A stretch of 64,000 bases of DNA from Thermoanaerobaculia bacterium (GCA_963666565.1 OY762911.1:1888001-1952000); one strand, 5' to 3'. Positions 8,915-20,745 are shown, numbered from the stretch's first letter. The notes: generated by a model not told the origin, from the sequence alone. A program made the numbers and translations.

Positions 8915-9340
8915 ATGAAGTTCCAGCGAATCGTCCTGACGGCGGCGGCCCTCGCCCTGGCGCTCGCCGTTCCGCTCGCCGCCCATCACGCCTTCTCGGC
9001 CGAGTTCGACGCGGACCGGCCGCTGCAGCTTCGCGGCAAGGTGACGAAGATGGAGTGGATCAACCCCCACGCCTGGATCCACCTGGAGGTCGCGAACGAC
9101 GACGGCACGTTCACCGTCTGGATGGTCGAGGGCGGCACGCCGAACACGCTCGCCCGGCGCGGCTTCACGAAGAGGTCGCTCCTGCCCGGGACGGAGATCG
9201 TCGTCGACGGCTACCAGGCGAAGGACGGCTCGAACAAGGCGAACGGCCGCGACCTGACCTTCCCGGACGGCCGCAAGCTGTTCATGGGTTCCTCCGGCAC
9301 GGGCGCGCCGCGCGACGGCCGGGACCCGACCGAGCAGTAG
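8915..9340 (+). CDS. DUF6152 family protein
   Basis: AHHAFSAEFD...GKVTKMEWINPHAWIHL...WMVEGGTPNTL; RBS GAGGAG. Confidence 0.9.
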   Translation: MKFQRIVLTAAALALALAVPLAAHHAFSAEFDADRPLQLRGKVTKMEWINPHAWIHLEVANDDGTFTVWMVEGGTPNTLARRGFTKRSLLPGTEIVVDGYQAKDGSNKANGRDLTFPDGRKLFMGSSGTGAPRDGRDPTEQ

Positions 9341-9437: not shown

Positions 9438-9479
9438 CATCCGCCTTCGGCGCCGGATGAGGGGTTGGCGCCGGGCCTT

Positions 9480-9612
9480 GTTGGTCGCCATGCACAGTGG
9501 GCACGAAACGCCCTGCCTATTCGCCGCGCGCGGGGAGCGACCCAGCGCGGTGTGTCGACTGTTGTATTCGGCAGGAGACCCGGCTCGCAGGCCCACTGCG
9601 TTGACAACCAAC
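9480..9612 (-). ncRNA. Putative structured ncRNA, copy 1 (133 nt, family unknown)
   Basis: 5' GUUGGUUGUCA pairs with 3' UGGCGACCAAC, CGCAGUGGGC with GCCCACUGUG, CCUGCC with GGCAGG; apical GGG-UCGCU-CCC. G-U pairs favour the minus strand. Homologous to 14091-14226. Confidence 0.75.
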
Positions 9613-9618
9613 GGCGGG

Positions 9619-9648
9619 AAGCTACCGTGCGGGTCGCTGGCGCGTCAA
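9619..9648 (-). promoter_or_regulatory. Sigma70-type promoter for ncRNA copy 1
   Basis: TTGACG (9648-9643)-N18-TAGCTT (9624-9619)-N6-G at the first base of the closing stem. Confidence 0.7.
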
Positions 9649-9733
9649 ACCGGCTTCGCCCGCGGCGCGGCGTCTCCGCGGCGCGCGGCTCGGCGGCGTT
9701 TTCCGGTTGCCGGCCGGCCGGGCGCCATGGAGA

Positions 9734-10507
9734 CTACGGCGTCGGGATCAGGCTGGCCACGCCGGCCAGGGCGGCCAGGAAGGCCGTTGTCGCCGCCCAG
9801 AGGGTGCCGGCGATCAGAAAGCCCTTGCGTTCGGAAAGCCGAAACACGGCGGCGGCGCCGAGGCCGAGCAGAGCGACATGCCAGACGGTGAAGGGCGTGA
9901 TCCTCATCAGGACCGCTTCGAGCGCCCAGTTCCCGGTGGGAAACAGCAGGTTCAGGCCCGGCACGATCACCGCGTCCGCCAGTTCGGTGGGCGATGCGAT
10001 CCCCTCCGGGCCGCGGCCGCGCGAGAGCAGCGCGCTGACCAGACCGCCGAGCCACGCAACGACGCCTAGATGGACGGCGAGCGAGAAGGACTGTCCGAAG
10101 CTCCCTTCACCGCGGAACGCCGTTACCAGCAGCCAGACGACGAGCGCCTGGAAGAGCCAGGCGCCGATCAGGCTGAAGAGCCCGAACACGGTTCCCCCCA
10201 CGAGGATCACCGCGTTCAGACCGGGAAGCGCGTCGGCCATGTCCGCGAGAAGCGGTTCATCCGACACGCTTGGCCATGTCGCGAGGAACTGGACGGCGCT
10301 CAGGGCGAGGAGCAGCGCCGCGGCGCCGGCCCAGGGTCGATGCTCGCGGACGATCGCGAAGCTGCTTCGAGGGGAGACGACGATCCCGGCCAGGACCTTG
10401 AACCATGCCTGCCGCTCGGTTTCGGCGCCGCCGGCGTATGCGATCGGCTCGGCGCTTTCCGGACGGACGGCGGCTTCCTCTTCCATGCGCGTCGGATCCT
10501 CCACCAT
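9734..10507 (-). CDS. Yip1 family membrane protein
   Basis: LAGIVVSPRSSFAIVREHRPW, about 5 TM, ITPFTVWHVALLGLG; RBS AGGAGG before ATG 10507. Confidence 0.8.
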   Translation of the reverse strand: MVEDPTRMEEEAAVRPESAEPIAYAGGAETERQAWFKVLAGIVVSPRSSFAIVREHRPWAGAAALLLALSAVQFLATWPSVSDEPLLADMADALPGLNAVILVGGTVFGLFSLIGAWLFQALVVWLLVTAFRGEGSFGQSFSLAVHLGVVAWLGGLVSALLSRGRGPEGIASPTELADAVIVPGLNLLFPTGNWALEAVLMRITPFTVWHVALLGLGAAAVFRLSERKGFLIAGTLWAATTAFLAALAGVASLIPTP

Positions 10508-10778
10508 GACGATTCCTCCTGCCTGCCGGCGGCCTCGCTCACCGACACGGTGACGGCGGTGGCGGCCGGCGCGCCGACCCCGGTCCATCGACCGGTTCTC
10601 GATCCGCGGACCATACTGGCACAGGGGCGACGGCGGACGGGCCGCCGGGCGCCGGCACGCCGGCGGCGGCCCGTCGACCGCCGTCGACGTGGAGCGCGCC
10701 TGATCGAAGCGAGCGCTCCGGCCTCTTCACCAGGGAGCGCGAAGGTCCGTCGTTGCCGCCATGCCGGTTCCGGTTCGG

Positions 10779-11558
10779 TTACGCCGGCAGGAGTCGGGAC
10801 GCCGTGGCGACCGACGCCGCGGCGAAGGCCGTCGTTGCCGCCCAGTAGACGGCCGCGAGCAACCAGCCCTTGCGCCGGGGCAGCTCGAACACCTGGGCCG
10901 CCCCTACGGCGAGCAGTACGACGAACCAGATCGTGAAGGGGTTGACGCTGGCGTAGAAGACGTTGAGGGCCGCGTTCTCGCCGGCCAGCAGCAGGTCGAG
11001 GCCCATCTGCGCCTGCAGGTCCAGCGGCGACCGGATCGCTTCGAACCCGCGGAGGTGGAGGAGGAGGAAGTTGGTCCAGTCCTTGACGTGAAGGACCAGA
11101 GCCAGATGGACCGTCAACGAGAGGGACTGGGCAAAGCGGAGTTGCCCCTGGAGCGCGATTGCCAGCAGCCAGACGAAAACCGTCTTGAGGACGAGTCCGA
11201 TGGCGAGGACCAGCGGGCCGGCTGCCATCGCCAGCCAGCGCGCCGCTCCGGCTGTCCGCTCGACCTGCGCCATCATGAGGTCGACCTGCTCCGGGCTGTC
11301 CGGCATCGTCTCCGTCAGTTGAGCCCGCGTCGCGTGGTTGTTCAGTGGCGCCGAGGCCGAGGCCAGGGCGGCGGTACCCGCCGCGAGCACAAGGAACGGC
11401 GCCAGCCACGGGCGGCGGCGGTGGATGACCTCGAAGCTCCGTCGGGGCGACGCGAAGATGCCGACCAGCGCCTCGAGCCATGCGTGCCGGCCTGGCGAGT
11501 CTTCGCCGCCGGTCTCGGCATGGCCTTCACCTTCGATGCTGCCGAAGCGCCCAGTCAT
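10779..11558 (-). CDS. Yip1 family membrane protein (paralog)
   Basis: LVGIFASPRRSFEVIHRRRPWLAP, VNPFTIWFVVLLAVG; ATGA overlap with the ABC ATPase stop. Confidence 0.82.
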   Translation of the reverse strand: MTGRFGSIEGEGHAETGGEDSPGRHAWLEALVGIFASPRRSFEVIHRRRPWLAPFLVLAAGTAALASASAPLNNHATRAQLTETMPDSPEQVDLMMAQVERTAGAARWLAMAAGPLVLAIGLVLKTVFVWLLAIALQGQLRFAQSLSLTVHLALVLHVKDWTNFLLLHLRGFEAIRSPLDLQAQMGLDLLLAGENAALNVFYASVNPFTIWFVVLLAVGAAQVFELPRRKGWLLAAVYWAATTAFAAASVATASRLLPA

Positions 11559-12340
11559 TCCGTGCTCCTGTTCCCGATCCAGGAGAGGCGGGAGAACCTC
11601 TCGCGTCTGGAGATGCCGAGAATGAGGTTCTCAAGCCGCCCGGCGCCGTCGTCTCCTTCGGCGGCCGGCAGTTCGCGGAATTCCTCGCGGGAGCACGACA
11701 GGAGGACCTTGCCGGCCCTGATGACGGCGATGTGGGTCGACACGCGCTCGACGTAGTCGAGCATGTGGGAGGTCAGGAAGACGGCCGTGCCCTGGTCGGC
11801 CATCTGCTGCAGGATCGACATGACGGTGCGCGCGCTCAGGGCGTCCATCCCCTCGAACGGCTCGTCGAGGAACAGGACCCTGGGCGCGTGGAGGGTCGCC
11901 GCCGCCAGACGGATCTTCTTCCTCATGCCGTGAGAGTAGGTCGTGATCGGCCGCTTGCCGGCTTCTTCCAGGTCGAAAACCGTGAGCGCCTCGTCCGTCC
12001 GCTGCCCGGCGTCCTCGCGGCTCAGGCCGTAGATCCGGGCGTACGAGAGCAGCAGCTCTTCGCCGGTCAGGCTCTCGAACAGGACGCTGTGGTCCGGCAC
12101 GATGCCGAGTTGCCGCTTGAGTTCCGCGTCGTTTACGTCCACCGGCTTACCGAGAAGCCGTACCGTGCCCTTCGTGGGCGTCACGACTCCGGTCAGCATC
12201 GACCAGGTCGTCGTCTTGCCGGCGCCGTTGGGGCCGACGAAGCCCAGAATCTGCCCCTCCCGGACCTCCAGGTCGACGCCGTCGACGACGACGTTGCCCC
12301 CGTAGGACCGGGTCAGGTTCTCTGCCTTGATTGCTTCCAT
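11555..12340 (-). CDS. ABC transporter ATP-binding protein (exporter type)
   Basis: Walker A GPNGAGKTT, signature YSHGMRKK, Walker B LFLDEP, H-loop LTSH; RBS AAAGGAA before ATG 12340. Confidence 0.95.
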   Translation of the reverse strand: MEAIKAENLTRSYGGNVVVDGVDLEVREGQILGFVGPNGAGKTTTWSMLTGVVTPTKGTVRLLGKPVDVNDAELKRQLGIVPDHSVLFESLTGEELLLSYARIYGLSREDAGQRTDEALTVFDLEEAGKRPITTYSHGMRKKIRLAAATLHAPRVLFLDEPFEGMDALSARTVMSILQQMADQGTAVFLTSHMLDYVERVSTHIAVIRAGKVLLSCSREEFRELPAAEGDDGAGRLENLILGISRRERFSRLSWIGNRSTE

Positions 12341-12432
12341 GCGTGGTTGTGTTCCTTTTGGTCGTAAGGGGCAGAAGATGTGTAGGGGCGGGAGACACAA
12401 GGGGCGGGGGCCAGCTGGTGCGGAGGGTTCAG

Positions 12433-14024
12433 CTAGTGCGGAGGGTCCTTGAGCAGGAGTTCGTGCGTCCGCGACTCGATTTCGCGCCGTTGGCGCGCCG
12501 TCGACGGTCGCCACGCCAGGGCCGAAAACGTGAGAGCGACGCCGGCGGCGATCGTGGCCATGAGCCCTCCGTTCCCGGGTCGCTCCAGTATCCGCGAGAC
12601 CAGGATCGCGAGTACGAGGAACGCCATTATGGGGAGGGTGGCGACAAAGCTCACCCCCAGGTTCTCTACCTCGAACTCCGTGGCGCCTCCGATCCTGCGC
12701 TTGGGCCAGTACAGTTGAACCAGGCCGTAGACCGCGTCGGCGACCAGCAAAAGGGCGGCGACCAGGGTTACAGCCAGAACTGAGAGTGTCCAGTTGCCCG
12801 GGCCGAAGTGAGCCAAACCGACGCCTGTCGCCAGAACGACGACCGGGATCGCCAGCAGCGCAGGTGCCCTGGCCGGTGCCCGAAAGATACGGAACGGCCT
12901 TAGCGGCAATGCGAGGGACTCACGCCAGACCTGGCAACTCGGAGGCGGTTTCTCGGTCCGAACGCCGTTGAGGAGGATGACCGTTACCAGAGCGGCGGTC
13001 ATCAGGCCGAGTACAGGGTCGACGGTGGTGTAGGTGGCGTACGCGAGGCAGATGACGTAGCACCATCTGACCCCCTTGGCGCGACATAGGCACTCGAGTT
13101 CGACGAGTGTCAGACAAGCGCCCGGCGACAACCGGCGACAACGGCGCAGGAGTCCCGCCAGGGCGTAACCGTCGAGGCCGTCCGCCGGTCTCCACCCGGG
13201 CGAGAGAGGAATTGGCGGAGCAGGAGTCGGTACTCGATCCAGGCGGTCGCCGCGAGAAGACACAGCAGAACTCCCAGTCGCAGGATGTTCGGTGCGAGCG
13301 CCCCGGGCGAGTCGATGATGGCGGCGAGGAGACCGGTAGGGGTGTAGCCCAGCGCGACGAGAACCTCCGCGTCGCGGACCGAAGCGGCGACCGCTTCGAG
13401 CTCGGCCTCGCCGTCCAGGACGCCGATGCCGACGCGGAGGGCCTGAATCGCCGCGACGATCAGGATGAACAGGCCGACCAGGCCGATCGTGCTTTCGACC
13501 AGCCGGTCCACGGTCAGGATGAGAATCGCTCCAAGCCGCCCGAGCAGCAGTGCCGTGGCTGCCAGACCGACGGTCGCCAGCAGGAAATCGACCAGCCCCT
13601 GGGGTCGGGTCGCGAGCAGGTAAAGCGCCGCGGGTCCGAGCCCGATCAACCAGTAGCCAGCCAGACTGAACCCGAGCCGCAGCATGTAGAGGTCCCTGTA
13701 GGCGGCTGGGAGCGGGAGGAACGGCTCTATGTCCAGGAGCCAGTTCACCGGAAGGCGCAGGACCACCTGGGCCAGCAACCACAGGAGAGTTGCAACGCCG
13801 GTGGCGAGGTTCAGCAGGTTGCGGCGTAGCGGTTCGTCCTCGATGCCGAAGAGAAGGGAGAGCAGCGGCACCGTCGCGGCAGTGGCAACGACAAGGTAGA
13901 TCAGGGCGATGCCGACGGCAACGACTTGCGTCTGATCGCGTCGCTTCAGGGCGCCGGGAAGAGCTAGCCTACCCAGTGTCAGCAGCAGGTCCGCCCGGCT
14001 TCCGGGCTTCGTCAGTACGGCCAT
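12433..14024 (-). pseudogene. ABC exporter permease-like membrane protein split by a single-base frameshift (real, or an assembly error)
   Basis: The N half (14024-13110 ORF) and C half (end of the 13782-12433 ORF) both align to the intact paralog 2186-3799. Adding one base to the G run at 13161-13163 restores TPLAGLLRR (paralog LPLAWILRR). Confidence 0.8.
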
Positions 14025-14090
14025 TGGATCCTCGTGTCGCGGCGTCCAGTTCTGGAAGGCGGGCAGGCGCCTGGACTGGCGGCGGGCCCG

Positions 14091-14226
14091 GCTGGTTGCG
14101 GAGCACAGAGGGAACGAGACCCCCCGCCGCCTCGCCTGACGAAGGGAGCGACCCTAGGTCCCGGGGCGACGGCCAAGTCCGGCAGGGGATCCGAGTAGCG
14201 GGCCCACTGCGCCTTTGGCAACCAAC
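14091..14226 (-). ncRNA. Putative structured ncRNA, copy 2 (136 nt)
   Basis: GUUGGUUGC/GCAACCAGC, 13-bp GGAUCCCCUGCCG/CGGCGGGGGGUCU, apical GGG-UCGCU-CCC. Collinear with 9480-9612 apart from one 3-nt indel. Confidence 0.75.
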
Positions 14227-14232
14227 GGACGG

Positions 14233-14262
14233 ACGCTAGCGCGCCGGAGTGGCGTCCGTCAA
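14233..14262 (-). promoter_or_regulatory. Sigma70-type promoter for ncRNA copy 2 and possibly the transporter genes
   Basis: TTGACG (14262-14257)-N18-TAGCGT (14238-14233)-N6-G, the same geometry as 9619-9648. Confidence 0.7.
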
Positions 14263-17103: not shown

Positions 17104-20100
17104 TCAGCTCAGCAGCAGGCGCAGATCGTCGGCGGTGAGATCCCGCAGGGACGATCCGCCGCCTTCGAGGATCGCGTCGGCGATCTGCCGCTTCGAGCGC
17201 TGGAGTTCCAGCATCTTCTCTTCCACGGTGTCGCGGGCGATCAGGCGGTAGGCGAAGACAGGCTGGGTCTGGCCGATGCGGTGGGTGCGGTCGATGGCCT
17301 GCGCCTCCACCGCCGGGTTCCACCACGGATCGAGCAGGAAGACGTAGCCGGCCGCGGTCAGGTTCAGGCCGACGCCGCCCGCCTTCAGGCTGATCAGGAA
17401 GAGGTTCGTGTCCGGGTCGTTCTGGAAGAGGTCCACCACCTCGCCGCGGTTCCGGGTCTGCCCGTCGAGGTAGGCGTACGGGACGCCCCGCTCTTCCAGG
17501 TGGCGCCGGACGTAGGCCAGCAGCGACGTGAACTGCGAGAACACGAGGCACTTGTGCCCCTCGGCGAGCACCTCCGACACCTGCTCGAAGAGCGATTCGA
17601 GCTTGGCGCTGCCGGCCTCGTTCCAGGACTCGTCGATCAGCCCCGGGTGGCAGGCGACCTGGCGCAGGCGGAGCAGCGCCTCCAACACCTGCATGGCCGA
17701 GCCGCCGACTCCCTTCTCTTCCACCTGCTGCAGCAGGCTGTCGCGGTAGCCGGCCCGGAGCTGGTCGTAGATCTCCTGCTGCTTCGGGTTCAGGGTGCAC
17801 TGCAGGATCTGCTCGGTCTTCTCCGGCAGGTCCGGGAGCACTTCCCGCTTGCTGCGGCGGAGGATGAAGGGCCGCAGACCCTTGGCGACGAGGGCGAGCT
17901 CCTGCTCGCTCGGCGCCCGGCCGCCGGCCAGCACGTCGAGCGCCGGCAGCCGGCCGAGCAGGCCCGGGTTGAGGAACTCGAAGATCGAGCCGAGTTCGCC
18001 CAGGTGGTTCTCGATCGGCGTACCGGTCAGCGCCAGCCGGTGCTTGCCGGTCAGCAGGCGACAGGCCTTGGCCGTCTGCGAGGCCGCGTTCTTGATCGCC
18101 TGCGCCTCGTCGAGGATGACGGTGTCGAAGTCGACCGTCGCCAGGTAGCCGATGTCGCGGCGCACGGTGCCGTAGGTCGTGACGACCAGGTCGGCGGAGG
18201 CGATGTCGCCGCGCAGGTCCTCGCGGTCCCGGCCGGCGTACTCCAGCACCTTGAGGTCCGGCGTGAAGCGGGCGGCCTCGTCGATCCAGTTGTAGACGAG
18301 GCTGCGCGGCGCGACGACGAGGTAGGGCAGCTTCGTCGTCCGCGAGGCGGTGCGGTACATGCGGAGCAGCGCCAGGGCCTGGATCGTCTTGCCCAGCCCC
18401 ATGTCGTCGGCGAGCACGCCGCCGAGGCCGAACTCGCGCAGGAAGCACAGCCAGCCCAGGCCGAGCCGCTGGTAGGCGCGGAGCGCGCCGACGAAGCTGC
18501 GCGGCTCCTTCTTCGGCTTGATCGAGGAGAACGTGCTCAGCTTCTCGCGCAGCTCGGCGAAGGTCTTGCTGACGTTCACCGGCGGCGTCACCGCCAGCAG
18601 CGCGTCGACCAGCAGGGCCTGCGAGGGCAGGAAGCGGAGCCCCTCCTCGCTCGCGGCCTGCGCCAGTTGGCTGAGCGAGCCGTAGTTCTCCACCCAGGCC
18701 GCCGGCAGCAGGCCCTTCGAGCCGTCGTCCAGCTCGACCGAACGGCGGCCTTCCGAGATCGCCGACAGGATCTCCGAGAACTCGATGCGGTCCTCGCCGA
18801 AGTCGATCTGGCCGCTCAGCTCGAACCAGTCGACGCCGCTCTCGATGCGCAGCGCCGGCGGGCTGGGGGGCCGAATCGAAGCGCCGTGGGCCTGTACCTC
18901 CCAGCCCTCGGCGAGCAGCGGTTCGGCGACCGCCGGCAGGTCGCGCGGTTCCAGTTCCAGACCGTGGCCGGTCTTGGACGCGACCGGCTTCAGGCCGAGC
19001 TCGAGCAGGCGGACGAGCGCCGCCTGCTCGACCTCCAGGTCGCGCCGGACGAAGCGGTGCTCCTCCCAGTCGACCACCGCCGAACGCGGGTCGCCGGCGT
19101 CGACGGTCAGGCTGTCGTAGCCGAAGCTGAGCCGGGCCTCGAGCTGGGGGTTCATCCACTCCGGCGCGTCCTCCGGCTCCAACGCCAGGCGCGGCTGCGG
19201 CGCCGGGGACTCCTCCGAGAGGTAGACCTCTTCCGGCAGCTCCAGCGGCGGCAGGGCGGGCAGTTCCAGCAGGCTCGTCACCGCCGCTTCCAGGTCCTCG
19301 TCCGGGATGACCAGGTCGCCGCTGGCGCCGAGCAGGGAGTACCAGGGCTGGTCGCGCCTCGGCTCGAGGTGGAGCCGGCAGATCGAGTCGTCGAGCAGCA
19401 GCAGCGTGTTGCCGGTCTCCTCCGCGCGGGCGCCGGGCGCGACGCCGTTGCCGGCCGGGAACGGCAGCACGAGGGCCGCGCGGCTGAGCGGCGCCGTCTC
19501 GTCGCCGCGCTTGAGCAGACCGCGGAGCCGGACGCGGCTTGCCGCCGCGAGCTCCAGTTGCAGCGTGAGACGCCAGGGAGCGCCTTCGTCGAAGGTCACC
19601 GGTTGCTGTCCGGCCAGGGAGCGGCCGTCCCACCAGAAGAGGCGGCCGCTTGCGCTGAGGCGCGGCAGCAGGCGATCGACCCAGTTCAGCGGCACGAAGA
19701 CCCGCTGGATTCGGGGTCGCGCCGGCGGGCGGCCGCGGCCGGCCTTGCGCTTGCGCCCCTGGCGTTGCGGCGCCTCCGGCGGCAGCGCGGTGATCATCGC
19801 CGGCGTCGCCGCCGCGGACGCGCCGTTCGTCGACGGGTCGCCGGCGTCGAGGGACTCCGGACCGAGCAGTTCCTCCAGCTTCGCGTGGTCGAGGTTGAGC
19901 CGCTTCATCTTGCCGAACTCGCCCTGCGGATTCCGCCTGCGGCCGAAGATGTCGATCATCAGGCCGCCGGCGTTGCGGCTCGTCGCGGCGTTGATGAGCA
20001 GCCGGATCTCGGGTTCGCCGTGCCTTGCCGAAACCGGCTTCGCGGGCTGGTCCTGCTGCTCGATGTTCTCGAGGACCGAGTCGACGACCGAGCGCCAGCT

Positions 20101-20745
20101 CGTCGTCGTGGGGGCTCGCCGCCGGCGCCGGCTGCGGCCCCGGCGCGTGCGCCTGGAGGGGCGGGGGGCCTCGCTCGCGGCGGTCGCCGCCGGCTCGACC
20201 GCGTCCAGCGCCGATCCCGGCATGGACACCTGGGGCGGACGAGTCTTGCGCAGCGAGACGCGGCCGGAGCCGGCCGGCTGGCTGCCCTTCGCGCTTGCCG
20301 CGAGCTCCAGCAGCGAGGCCCAGATGTGCCCGCACGCCGTGCCGGCGACGAACTCCGGACACTCGCACACCGCGTGCAAGATGCGTTCGTCGGGCACTCT
20401 CGACCAGTCGATCTCCACGGTGGCGGCGCCGTTCGTCGACGGATCCGCCGGGGCGTCGCCGTCGGTGGCCGGCAGCGCCGGAACGGTGGCCCGGGCCGTC
20501 GTCCCGTCGACTTCCAGCTTCACGGCGCCGGCCGCGAAGACGGACTGGCCCAGTTCCCGATCCTTCGGACGAAAGTGGGACGCGCTCCGCTGGTGCAGCG
20601 CGACCGTGCGGCCCTTGCCCGCGGCCGAGCGCGGGCGGTTCCGCCGCCGACGGCGGGCCGGCCGCCTGGGGATGGCAGTTTTCCCGGTGGGGTTTTCGCC
20701 TTGCGCTTCTGGCATTCCGATGGGGTATCGACCCGTTGAGTTCAC
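17104..20745 (-). CDS. SWIM zinc finger + SNF2-family (DEAD/DEAH-like) helicase (start may be ATG 20715)
   Basis: CECPEFVAGTACGH (SWIM); LRAYQRLG, LADDMGLGKT, ILDEAQAIKN, LTGTPIEN, LVFSQF, LKAGGVGLNLT, DPWWNPAVEAQAIDRTHRIGQ. Confidence 0.95.
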   Translation of the reverse strand: MNSTGRYPIGMPEAQGENPTGKTAIPRRPARRRRRNRPRSAAGKGRTVALHQRSASHFRPKDRELGQSVFAAGAVKLEVDGTTARATVPALPATDGDAPADPSTNGAATVEIDWSRVPDERILHAVCECPEFVAGTACGHIWASLLELAASAKGSQPAGSGRVSLRKTRPPQVSMPGSALDAVEPAATAASEAPRPSRRTRRGRSRRRRRAPTTTSWRSVVDSVLENIEQQDQPAKPVSARHGEPEIRLLINAATSRNAGGLMIDIFGRRRNPQGEFGKMKRLNLDHAKLEELLGPESLDAGDPSTNGASAAATPAMITALPPEAPQRQGRKRKAGRGRPPARPRIQRVFVPLNWVDRLLPRLSASGRLFWWDGRSLAGQQPVTFDEGAPWRLTLQLELAAASRVRLRGLLKRGDETAPLSRAALVLPFPAGNGVAPGARAEETGNTLLLLDDSICRLHLEPRRDQPWYSLLGASGDLVIPDEDLEAAVTSLLELPALPPLELPEEVYLSEESPAPQPRLALEPEDAPEWMNPQLEARLSFGYDSLTVDAGDPRSAVVDWEEHRFVRRDLEVEQAALVRLLELGLKPVASKTGHGLELEPRDLPAVAEPLLAEGWEVQAHGASIRPPSPPALRIESGVDWFELSGQIDFGEDRIEFSEILSAISEGRRSVELDDGSKGLLPAAWVENYGSLSQLAQAASEEGLRFLPSQALLVDALLAVTPPVNVSKTFAELREKLSTFSSIKPKKEPRSFVGALRAYQRLGLGWLCFLREFGLGGVLADDMGLGKTIQALALLRMYRTASRTTKLPYLVVAPRSLVYNWIDEAARFTPDLKVLEYAGRDREDLRGDIASADLVVTTYGTVRRDIGYLATVDFDTVILDEAQAIKNAASQTAKACRLLTGKHRLALTGTPIENHLGELGSIFEFLNPGLLGRLPALDVLAGGRAPSEQELALVAKGLRPFILRRSKREVLPDLPEKTEQILQCTLNPKQQEIYDQLRAGYRDSLLQQVEEKGVGGSAMQVLEALLRLRQVACHPGLIDESWNEAGSAKLESLFEQVSEVLAEGHKCLVFSQFTSLLAYVRRHLEERGVPYAYLDGQTRNRGEVVDLFQNDPDTNLFLISLKAGGVGLNLTAAGYVFLLDPWWNPAVEAQAIDRTHRIGQTQPVFAYRLIARDTVEEKMLELQRSKRQIADAILEGGGSSLRDLTADDLRLLLS

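Follow-up and report, generated by a model that had tools for sequence, protein, structure and literature searches.

The window analysed here is a 64,000-nucleotide (nt) stretch of DNA from a Thermoanaerobaculia bacterium (GCA_963666565.1, OY762911.1:1888001-1952000). Its minus strand carries an operon coding for a membrane protein, a stretch without an assigned family, an ATP-binding cassette (ABC) ATPase and two Yip1 proteins, and this operon is flanked by two homologous elements that begin at positions 9612 (copy 1, behind the operon) and 14226 (copy 2, in front of it). The two copies align collinearly with ~70% identity (70% over 159 and 127 nt by blastn). An initial annotation made from the sequence alone had described them as a pair of homologous, structured and promoter-associated RNAs, and their starts, similarity and predicted rod folds bear this description out.

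Both copies open with GUUGGUUG, 6 nt past a -10-like hexamer, in agreement with the start that had been placed 6 nt after TTGACG-N18-TAGC[TG]T (Table 1). Among 38 representatives of the family to which the elements belong, 30 have a TAnnnT hexamer 7-16 nt upstream of the first pair of the rod, compared with 45 of 380 control positions (12%), and this fixed distance points to the base of the rod as the site where transcription begins. The assignment of putative promoters is based on such conservation and not on a consensus scan.

The two RNAs are predicted to fold into bulged rods with paired ends and an invariant apex GGGUCGCUCCC, as initially annotated, with energies of -70.8 kcal/mol for copy 1 (z -5.1 with respect to shuffled sequences) and -74.2 kcal/mol for copy 2 (z -3.2). 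The folds of the plus strand are weaker (-63.1 and -64.5 kcal/mol, respectively), which is expected for an RNA that makes use of G-U pairs. The outer strands of the rod are called A (5') and A' (3') in the following, and enclose a segment B and a core hairpin. The core of copy 2 retains the apex and harbors GGACUUGG / GCGAGGCGG instead of the loop GAAUACAA/GCGAAUAGG of copy 1. While the annotated start positions stand, the extent of ~135 nt does not, because the conserved element passes positions 9480 and 14091 and continues for ~30 nt in the 3' direction, reaching ~9449 and ~14060. The added part consists of GGCCCGGC-GCCA (9477-9466) in copy 1 or GGCCCGCC-GCCA (14088-14077) in copy 2, followed by another hairpin.

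Table 1. Positions of the two elements and of the neighboring genes in the window
Feature	Position (strand)	Description	Basis
Copy 1, promoter-like region	9619..9648 (-)	TTGACG 9648-9643, 18-nt spacer, TAGCTT 9624-9619	Sequence read
Copy 1, strand A	9585..9612 (-)	5' outer strand of the rod, predicted to pair with A'	Fold; cognate duplex test
Copy 1, segment B	9577..9584 (-)	GCCGGGUC; 5' strand of closing stem P1, internal loop in the rod form	RNAalifold; pair counts
Copy 1, core hairpin	9512..9575 (-)	P2 CCUGCC/GGCAGG, loop GAAUACAA / GCGAAUAGG, P3, P4, apex GGGUCGCUCCC	Alignments; covariation; cross-phylum conservation
Copy 1, strand A'	9478..9511 (-)	3' outer strand of the rod	Fold; duplex test
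Copy 1, tail	9449..9477 (-)	B' GGCCCGGC 9477-9470, GCCA 9469-9466, hairpin P5 (GGCGCC ... GGCGCC, to ~9449)	Invariant columns; fold
Copy 2, promoter-like region	14233..14262 (-)	TTGACG 14262-14257, 18-nt spacer, TAGCGT 14238-14233	Conserved in orthologues
Copy 2, rod	14089..14226 (-)	A 14226-14196, B CUCGGAUC 14195-14188, core hairpin 14187-14120, A' 14119-14089	
Copy 2, tail	14060..14088 (-)	B' GGCCCGCC 14088-14081, GCCA 14080-14077, predicted hairpin including B'	Alignment; fold
Start of first operon gene	14022..14032 (-)	Shine-Dalgarno sequence GAGGA 14032-14028, ATG 14024-14022	Start and N-terminus conserved in relatives
Operon behind copy 2	9734..14024 (-)	Membrane protein, stretch without family, ABC ATPase, Yip1, Yip1	
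Membrane protein	14024-13110 (-)		Start conserved in relatives
ABC ATPase	12514-11555 (-)	ABC_tran	Pfam, 3.3e-29
Yip1 proteins	11558-10779 and 10588-9734 (-)	Yip1	Pfam, 4.4e-10 and 2.5e-15
DUF6152 gene	8915-9340 (+)	Convergent; next gene downstream of copy 1	Pfam

Family members precede genes

A covariance model, R1, was built from 41 sequences (alignment A3). It identifies four copies in this genome, copy 2 scoring 93.2 bits, and blastn finds just copies 1 and 2 in the 4.79-Mb genome; such a number is not that of a high-copy repeat of the miniature inverted-repeat transposable element (MITE) type. Within the genus, R1 detects 1-10 copies per genome in 41 of 42 genomes. Of 36 sampled genomes, 35 contain an orthologue of copy 1, which is 92% identical to its orthologues; the copy-2-type element is in most cases located at a distance of 3.5-5.9 kb from copy 1, and many genomes also harbor a third type elsewhere.

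In a class-level sample searched with stricter filters, R1 matched none of 130 genomes outside the genus. The wider spread of the family was detected only by pattern scans, run on one genome per species, in which a 23-nt core pattern gave at least 119 loci. Eighty of these were taken with their flanks, 12 were set aside as the same lineage by title, and the remaining 68 were tested. R1 matches 46 of these 68 other-taxon loci at E <=0.01 (29.5-95.9 bits), although the loci had been picked by a pattern belonging to R1 and the matches thus arise partly by construction. The alignments extend over the 3' half of the motif too, and the matching loci belong to Longimicrobiales and other Gemmatimonadota, Latescibacterota, other Acidobacteriota, Alpha- and Gammaproteobacteria, Binatia and Dehalococcoidia. 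An earlier, looser pattern had returned mostly chance matches (among the 80 loci listed, 19 showed a match at E below 1e-6, with 20 such matches in total). In the viral collection, a single core-pattern match was found, which R1 scores at 18.6 bits and which is probably a short-form relative.

The position of the family members in front of genes was assessed by counting open reading frames (ORFs) that have a start codon with a Shine-Dalgarno sequence (SD) and stay open for at least 50 amino acids (aa). Of the 38 representatives, 30 have such an ORF behind them, in typical cases 30-55 nt past segment B', and 20 of these 30 ORFs start with a hydrophobic signal-like segment. The same spacing of 30-55 nt between the conserved tail and the SD and start codon is typical of the third-type and distant members. 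The Pfam content of the downstream genes is mixed (Reprolysin-like, TonB_C, CARDB, CsgG, LRR, collagen repeat, Tad-like, TylF, or none). The initial annotation had proposed a free small RNA (sRNA) or antitoxin specific to the peptide module of the window, and this proposal finds no support in a family whose members stand before unrelated genes of many kinds in several phyla. A scan of the RNA strand gave no intrinsic terminator after copy 1 or copy 2.

Copy 1 was noted initially to have no same-strand gene downstream. This is true of this genome, but not of its relatives, in which copy 1 is followed 36-141 nt later by the SD and start codon of a gene coding for a secreted protein of ~365 aa. 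By DNA and protein comparison, this gene sits between copy 1 and the DUF6152 gene in 19 of 20 relatives' loci, whereas here it is missing and only ~130 nt separate copy 1 from the DUF6152 gene (DNA homology). Copy 1 therefore appears to be an orphaned leader. The secreted protein has at least 25 paralogues in this genome (25 near-full-length tblastn matches, for example C1:3752347-3753306); no Pfam family was found for it.

Some features of individual members concern their mobility and arrangement. One genome of the genus (G026) has ten R1 matches, some with identical scores (three at 73.3 bits and two at 113.6 bits), so that some leaders evidently move on duplicated or mobile segments, and a third-type copy in another genome (L078) adjoins an integrase gene of the insertion sequence (IS) type. 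A Longimicrobiales locus (L250) harbors two members in tandem (1198-1351 and 1715-1862), 517 nt apart, with a 67-aa ORF behind the first and no convincing ORF behind the second, an arrangement that resembles the tandem arrays of the RNA sRNA-Xcc1 in Xylella. In two loci of the same genus (L080 and L081), a second conserved stretch comprising an SD, an ATG and the first codons is found ~60-110 nt after the leader in one position or the other, behind the leader or inside it, which suggests that leaders have recombined onto a shared gene start. In copy 1 of the window, the hairpin P5 read on the plus strand (9446-9475) resembles a terminator, as does just one other site between 9200 and 14400; P5 is located ~100 nt past the stop codon of the convergent DUF6152 gene and may double as the terminator of that gene.

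Two predicted, mutually exclusive helices

The outer arms A and A' are wholly different between members, yet complementary within each of them. Cognate A:A' duplexes have a mean energy of -31.0 kcal/mol, compared with -17.5 kcal/mol for non-cognate combinations, and the cognate partner ranks first among 38 in 27 cases and within the first three in 36. The support for this helix is taken from the comparison of cognate and non-cognate duplexes, as MAFFT does not bring unrelated outer arms into register.

A second helix, the closing stem P1, is predicted by RNAalifold between B (GYCGGGUC) and B' (GGCCCGRC). Across 48 distant members, 98.4% of the cells of this stem are paired; one of its pairs occurs as CG (18), UG (15), GC (8), UA (3) and AU (2), and two further pairs vary through G-U. 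In the same 48 members, eight of the nine pairs of the apical stem show changes on both sides, consistent with the pairing-preserving substitutions that had been noticed near the apex of the two window copies. The minimum-energy fold of copy 1 shows P1 once A is kept unpaired. B' may also take part in the tail hairpin P5, as at least 3 nt of it are paired in the tail fold of all 38 representatives, although shuffling discriminates this hairpin weakly (mean z -1.23, 10 of 38 below -2). Because A' and B' are 2-4 nt apart and B lies at the other end of the ~20-bp A:A' helix, A:A' and P1 would be mutually exclusive on geometric grounds, and the RNA looks bistable.

The possible effect of A' on the ribosome-binding site (RBS) of the next gene was examined in 27 representatives. 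When A is blocked, the predicted accessibility of the RBS (-15 to +3) falls in 19 of them and rises in two; the real A' gives lower accessibility than shuffled A' in 18 of 27 (p 0.014), strongly so in 10. The effect is specific in the third copy of this genome, where A', with A unpaired, is predicted to pair with a repeat of A on the start codon. A ranking of A' against downstream sequences across genomes (median rank 7 of 38) is confounded by G + C content and was not relied on. In this third copy (G000:C1:2246537-2246687, plus strand), the first 9 nt of the 5' strand are repeated on the SD-to-start-codon stretch of the next gene, which makes it the clearest example of a three-site arrangement (A, A', A'').

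Pairing between copies is also predicted. The A' of copy 1 forms a duplex of -45.5 kcal/mol with the A of copy 2, compared with -40.2 kcal/mol with its own A, so that cross-talk between the two leaders is possible, and the orphan copy 1 may have a role in trans. A genome search for Watson-Crick targets of A' found just matches of 12-14 nt, at chance level. Finally, B' is followed by NCC in 29 of 38 representatives and by NCCA in 16 of 38, and B is preceded by U in 21 of 38.

Relation to sRNA-Xcc1 and other known RNAs

The initial annotation did not recognise the family, and comparison with Rfam agrees in finding no family at threshold. The whole window has no match at gathering score, and between 9350 and 14400, with E values up to 10, there are three chance-level matches (nhaA-II, a snoRNA and CcsR1), none of them on the elements. 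The alternative suggestion of a 6S-like RNA is not supported either: 6S (RF00013) is a rod of ~180 nt with a central bubble, and its model leaves the elements unmatched both at gathering score and when E values up to 10 are allowed.

The closest catalogued RNA is sRNA-Xcc1 (RF02221), an 88-nt RNA of Xanthomonas campestris also present in integron cassettes and genomic islands. The RF02221 model matches none of the four copies in a search of the whole genome, and leaves the window copies unmatched at E up to 10. In other family members, it gives 30.6, 35.8 and 32.2 bits in one consistent register, with a gathering threshold of 53 bits. Conversely, R1 matches 14 of 16 Rfam-confirmed sRNA-Xcc1 loci at the right place with 11-22 bits. 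Since the window copies do not match RF02221, the family is treated here, from sequence comparison, as a long-form relative of sRNA-Xcc1 and not as a member.

The core plan common to both RNAs comprises a closing stem, GYCGGG.../...CCCGRC with NCC after it, a hairpin that carries, in part of the family, AAUACAA and GAAUA as the strands of an internal loop, and a second segment before the 3' closing strand. The closing stem with its NCC is present in copy 1 (GCCGGGUC / GGCCCGGC-GCCA); the AAUACAA/GAAUA loop is found in copy 1 and in the third type, and is replaced in copy 2 and its orthologues. The family differs by its length (~165 nt compared with 88 nt) and by a long apical extension (P4, apex GGGUAGCUCC/GGGUCGCUCCC) where sRNA-Xcc1 has a loop of 3-4 nt; in the alignments, the tip of the hairpin is longer by 28-43 inserted nt than that of the compact, ~87-nt sRNA-Xcc1, in which the first hairpin has a short cap. 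Moreover, the 5' strand A of the family pairs with the second segment to form the rod, whereas sRNA-Xcc1 lacks a 5' extension. The downstream genes also differ, being mostly secreted proteins or lipoproteins in the family and mobile-element genes for sRNA-Xcc1, of which 13 of 14 inspected true loci have an SD and an ORF 18-122 nt downstream.

In the available part of the paper PMC2996969, relatives of sRNA-Xcc1 are described as discrete RNAs of ~88-100 nt on Northern blots; the accessible text of a preprint places sRNA-Xcc1 upstream of symE in integron cassettes, and a paper on Xylella describes, in the portion available, tandem copies in a genomic island. The RNA has been catalogued for more than ten years and annotated in many genomes and, in the parts of this literature that are accessible, is treated as a trans-acting sRNA without a mechanism. 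By description only, the family can also be likened to Brt1-9 of Bartonella, which are likewise multi-copy, stably folded RNAs preceding genes; the accessible part of their description (Tu et al. 2016, PMC5387305) reports ~200-nt RNAs with stable folds located directly upstream of genes and proposes that they act in cis and in trans.

Interpretation and genomic setting

The reading that we prefer, with a probability of about 0.6, is that each copy is transcribed from a promoter of its own as a 5' leader RNA, and that the two represent a long form of the sRNA-Xcc1 type which is widespread but absent from the catalogues. The window RNAs would thereby join a larger, cross-phylum set of promoter-proximal leaders with an sRNA-Xcc1-like core, and an orphan sRNA would become a testable cis-regulatory switch in front of genes coding for secreted and surface proteins in phyla that have been little studied (Acidobacteriota, Gemmatimonadota and Latescibacterota). 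As Rfam misses the family, it merits a covariance model of its own.

Under this reading, the leader would be ordered as A, B (GYCGGGUC), core hairpin, A', B' (GGCCCGRC followed by NCC, often NCCA) and the RBS of the next gene, and B' would pair either with B, forming P1, or with the sequence just downstream, forming P5. Given the mutual exclusion of A:A' and P1, the RNA would switch back and forth between the rod and a compact form closed by P1. Copy 2 would gate the membrane-protein/ABC/Yip1/Yip1 operon, and copy 1 would have gated the gene of the 365-aa secreted protein, since lost from this genome.

The analysis shows the family, its location ahead of genes and the two exclusive helices; how such a switch is triggered, and whether it would raise or lower expression, we infer. 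The most likely mechanism would be a processing-driven one similar to that of C4 of phage P1, which is put forward tentatively and at clearly less than even odds. Displacement or removal of A would leave an RNA closed by P1 in which A' is exposed, and the exposed A' could base-pair with a complementary stretch close to the start codon or with strand A of a sister leader. Stem P1 with NCCA resembles the acceptor end of a tRNA and would suit RNase P; according to its title, the paper by Hartmann et al. (1995) reports the C4 precursor to be a substrate of this enzyme.

In the C4 system (immI of phages P1 and P7; RF01695, RF03163), the phage P1 record has the order a1,b1 - C4 - a2,b2 - icd. The likeness comprises, in one order and within a single transcript, a promoter, an upstream complementary site, a stem-closed RNA followed by ACC in the Rfam consensus, and a downstream complementary site at the RBS of the next gene, to which would correspond, in the family, A, the P1-closed RNA containing A', the RBS-proximal site, and B' with NCC. 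There are also differences, as the upstream site of the family forms one long helix with A' while C4 makes short loop contacts, and the downstream complementary site is clear in about one third of the representatives and not in copy 2. A stronger version of this proposal, which we regard as rather doubtful, is that the leaders are tRNA-like, self-targeting antisense RNAs residing in the 5' ends of mRNAs: RNase P or another nuclease would remove A, A' would silence its own gene or sister leaders, and the orphan copy 1 would regulate the ABC/Yip1 operon in trans through the nearly identical A of copy 2, a cellular and cross-phylum counterpart of phage P1 C4. If the C4-like reading were true, a phage immunity device would represent a general bacterial means of gating accessory genes. 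According to an equally bold alternative, the family may be a new riboswitch class that responds to a global signal and controls genes of secreted proteins.

A number of results weigh against the leader reading or against the C4-like mechanism attached to it. The initial annotation assigned the copies their own sigma70 promoters, and while the position of the TAnnnT hexamer is conserved, a strict sigma-70 consensus scan gives no promoter site at the window elements. The predicted energy strongly favours the rod over the alternative fold (-107.7 compared with -80.6 kcal/mol in copy 1), so that active opening by some factor would be required. In addition to the replaced GAAUACAA/GCGAAUAGG loop, the subtype of copy 2 contains two mismatches within P1 (C-C at one pair). 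The effect of A' on the RBS is indistinguishable from that of shuffled sequences in 17 of the 27 representatives; for copy 2, the predicted accessibility of the RBS with A' released is 0.39, compared with 0.36 for shuffles, 82% of which are as low. The pairing of A' with the downstream 120 nt (RNAduplex) has a mean z of -0.95, with 7 of 38 representatives at p <=0.05. The NCC after B' is also accounted for by pairing in P5 and does not single out RNase P. Finally, R1 has no match to C4 in phage P1, and neither C4 nor c4-a1b1 is among the matches listed when the region of the two elements and the family loci are scanned with Rfam. As R1 is blind to C4 and NCC has a place in P5 as well, the link with C4 is one of analogy and not of homology.

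Among the rival explanations, a ligand-sensing riboswitch appears unlikely. In that case P1, P2, the apex and the GAAUACAA/GCGAAUAGG loop, which make up the conserved core, would serve as the aptamer of a small molecule, perhaps a global signal such as a second messenger, and its binding would favour P1 over the rod and alter expression. The family shares with orphan riboswitch candidates its promoter-proximal place in a 5' untranslated region, unpaired nucleotides that are invariant across phyla, covarying stems and alternative pairings in the form of two exclusive folds. Moreover, the downstream genes are mostly of surface or secreted type (CsgG-like, LRR, collagen-repeat, Tad-like, metallopeptidase-like, CARDB, TonB_C), and such a set resembles that behind cyclic-dinucleotide riboswitches. 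However, these genes have no common function and no metabolic or transport theme, most of them being without a family, the short-form relatives precede mobile-element and prophage genes, and copy 2 lacks the conserved internal loop and is nevertheless kept as a leader. Unlike in the orphan candidates, the tRNA-like closing stem and the self-complementary sites point to an RNA-RNA mechanism. We consider it quite improbable that the copies are free-standing, trans-acting sRNAs regulating mRNAs or proteins of the peptide/ABC module, with an incidental place before a gene. The conservation of copy 1 despite its geneless position here, at least one other relative (L062) that also has no ORF behind it, the discrete relatives of sRNA-Xcc1 on Northern blots (in the available part of PMC2996969) and the strong predicted duplex of copy 1 A' with copy 2 A, which makes action in trans conceivable, would fit such sRNAs. 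They do not explain the SD-bearing gene right behind copy 1 in nearly all relatives' loci or the ORFs behind most representatives across phyla, and the missing terminators after either copy and the chance-level search for targets of A' argue in the same direction.

An origin as a MITE-like or other repeat acting at the DNA level, such as a recombination site or an attC-like hairpin, is barely credible. The elements do form long imperfect inverted repeats, identical duplicates occur in some genomes (G026), and one copy adjoins the IS-type integrase gene. Against this, there are only four copies here, the outer arms differ between copies and remain complementary with G-U pairs, folding is strand-asymmetric, and the elements are preceded, at a constant spacing, by a promoter-like hexamer and followed by a start codon. 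The attC-like recombination site was considered separately, by comparing orientation with the consensus of the R'' and R' boxes of attC, and was rejected, because the terminal GUUGG/CCAAC is opposite in orientation to these boxes and because of the G-U pairing.

With regard to the surrounding genes, no Pfam family was found for 13110-14024 or 12511-13113 in the operon behind copy 2. Two genes lie upstream of copy 2 on the minus strand, one of them thioredoxin-like (16597-16091) and the other of the Peptidase_C39 family (16101-15481, E 1.4e-29), and ~1.2 kb of small, family-less ORFs separate this pair from copy 2. On account of these two genes, the setting looks like a bacteriocin-type processing and export cluster. 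Further upstream, a large gene of the SNF2 helicase family is found at 17104-20745 on the minus strand (SNF2-rel_dom 8.8e-60, Helicase_C); a long antisense ORF that overlaps it is probably spurious.

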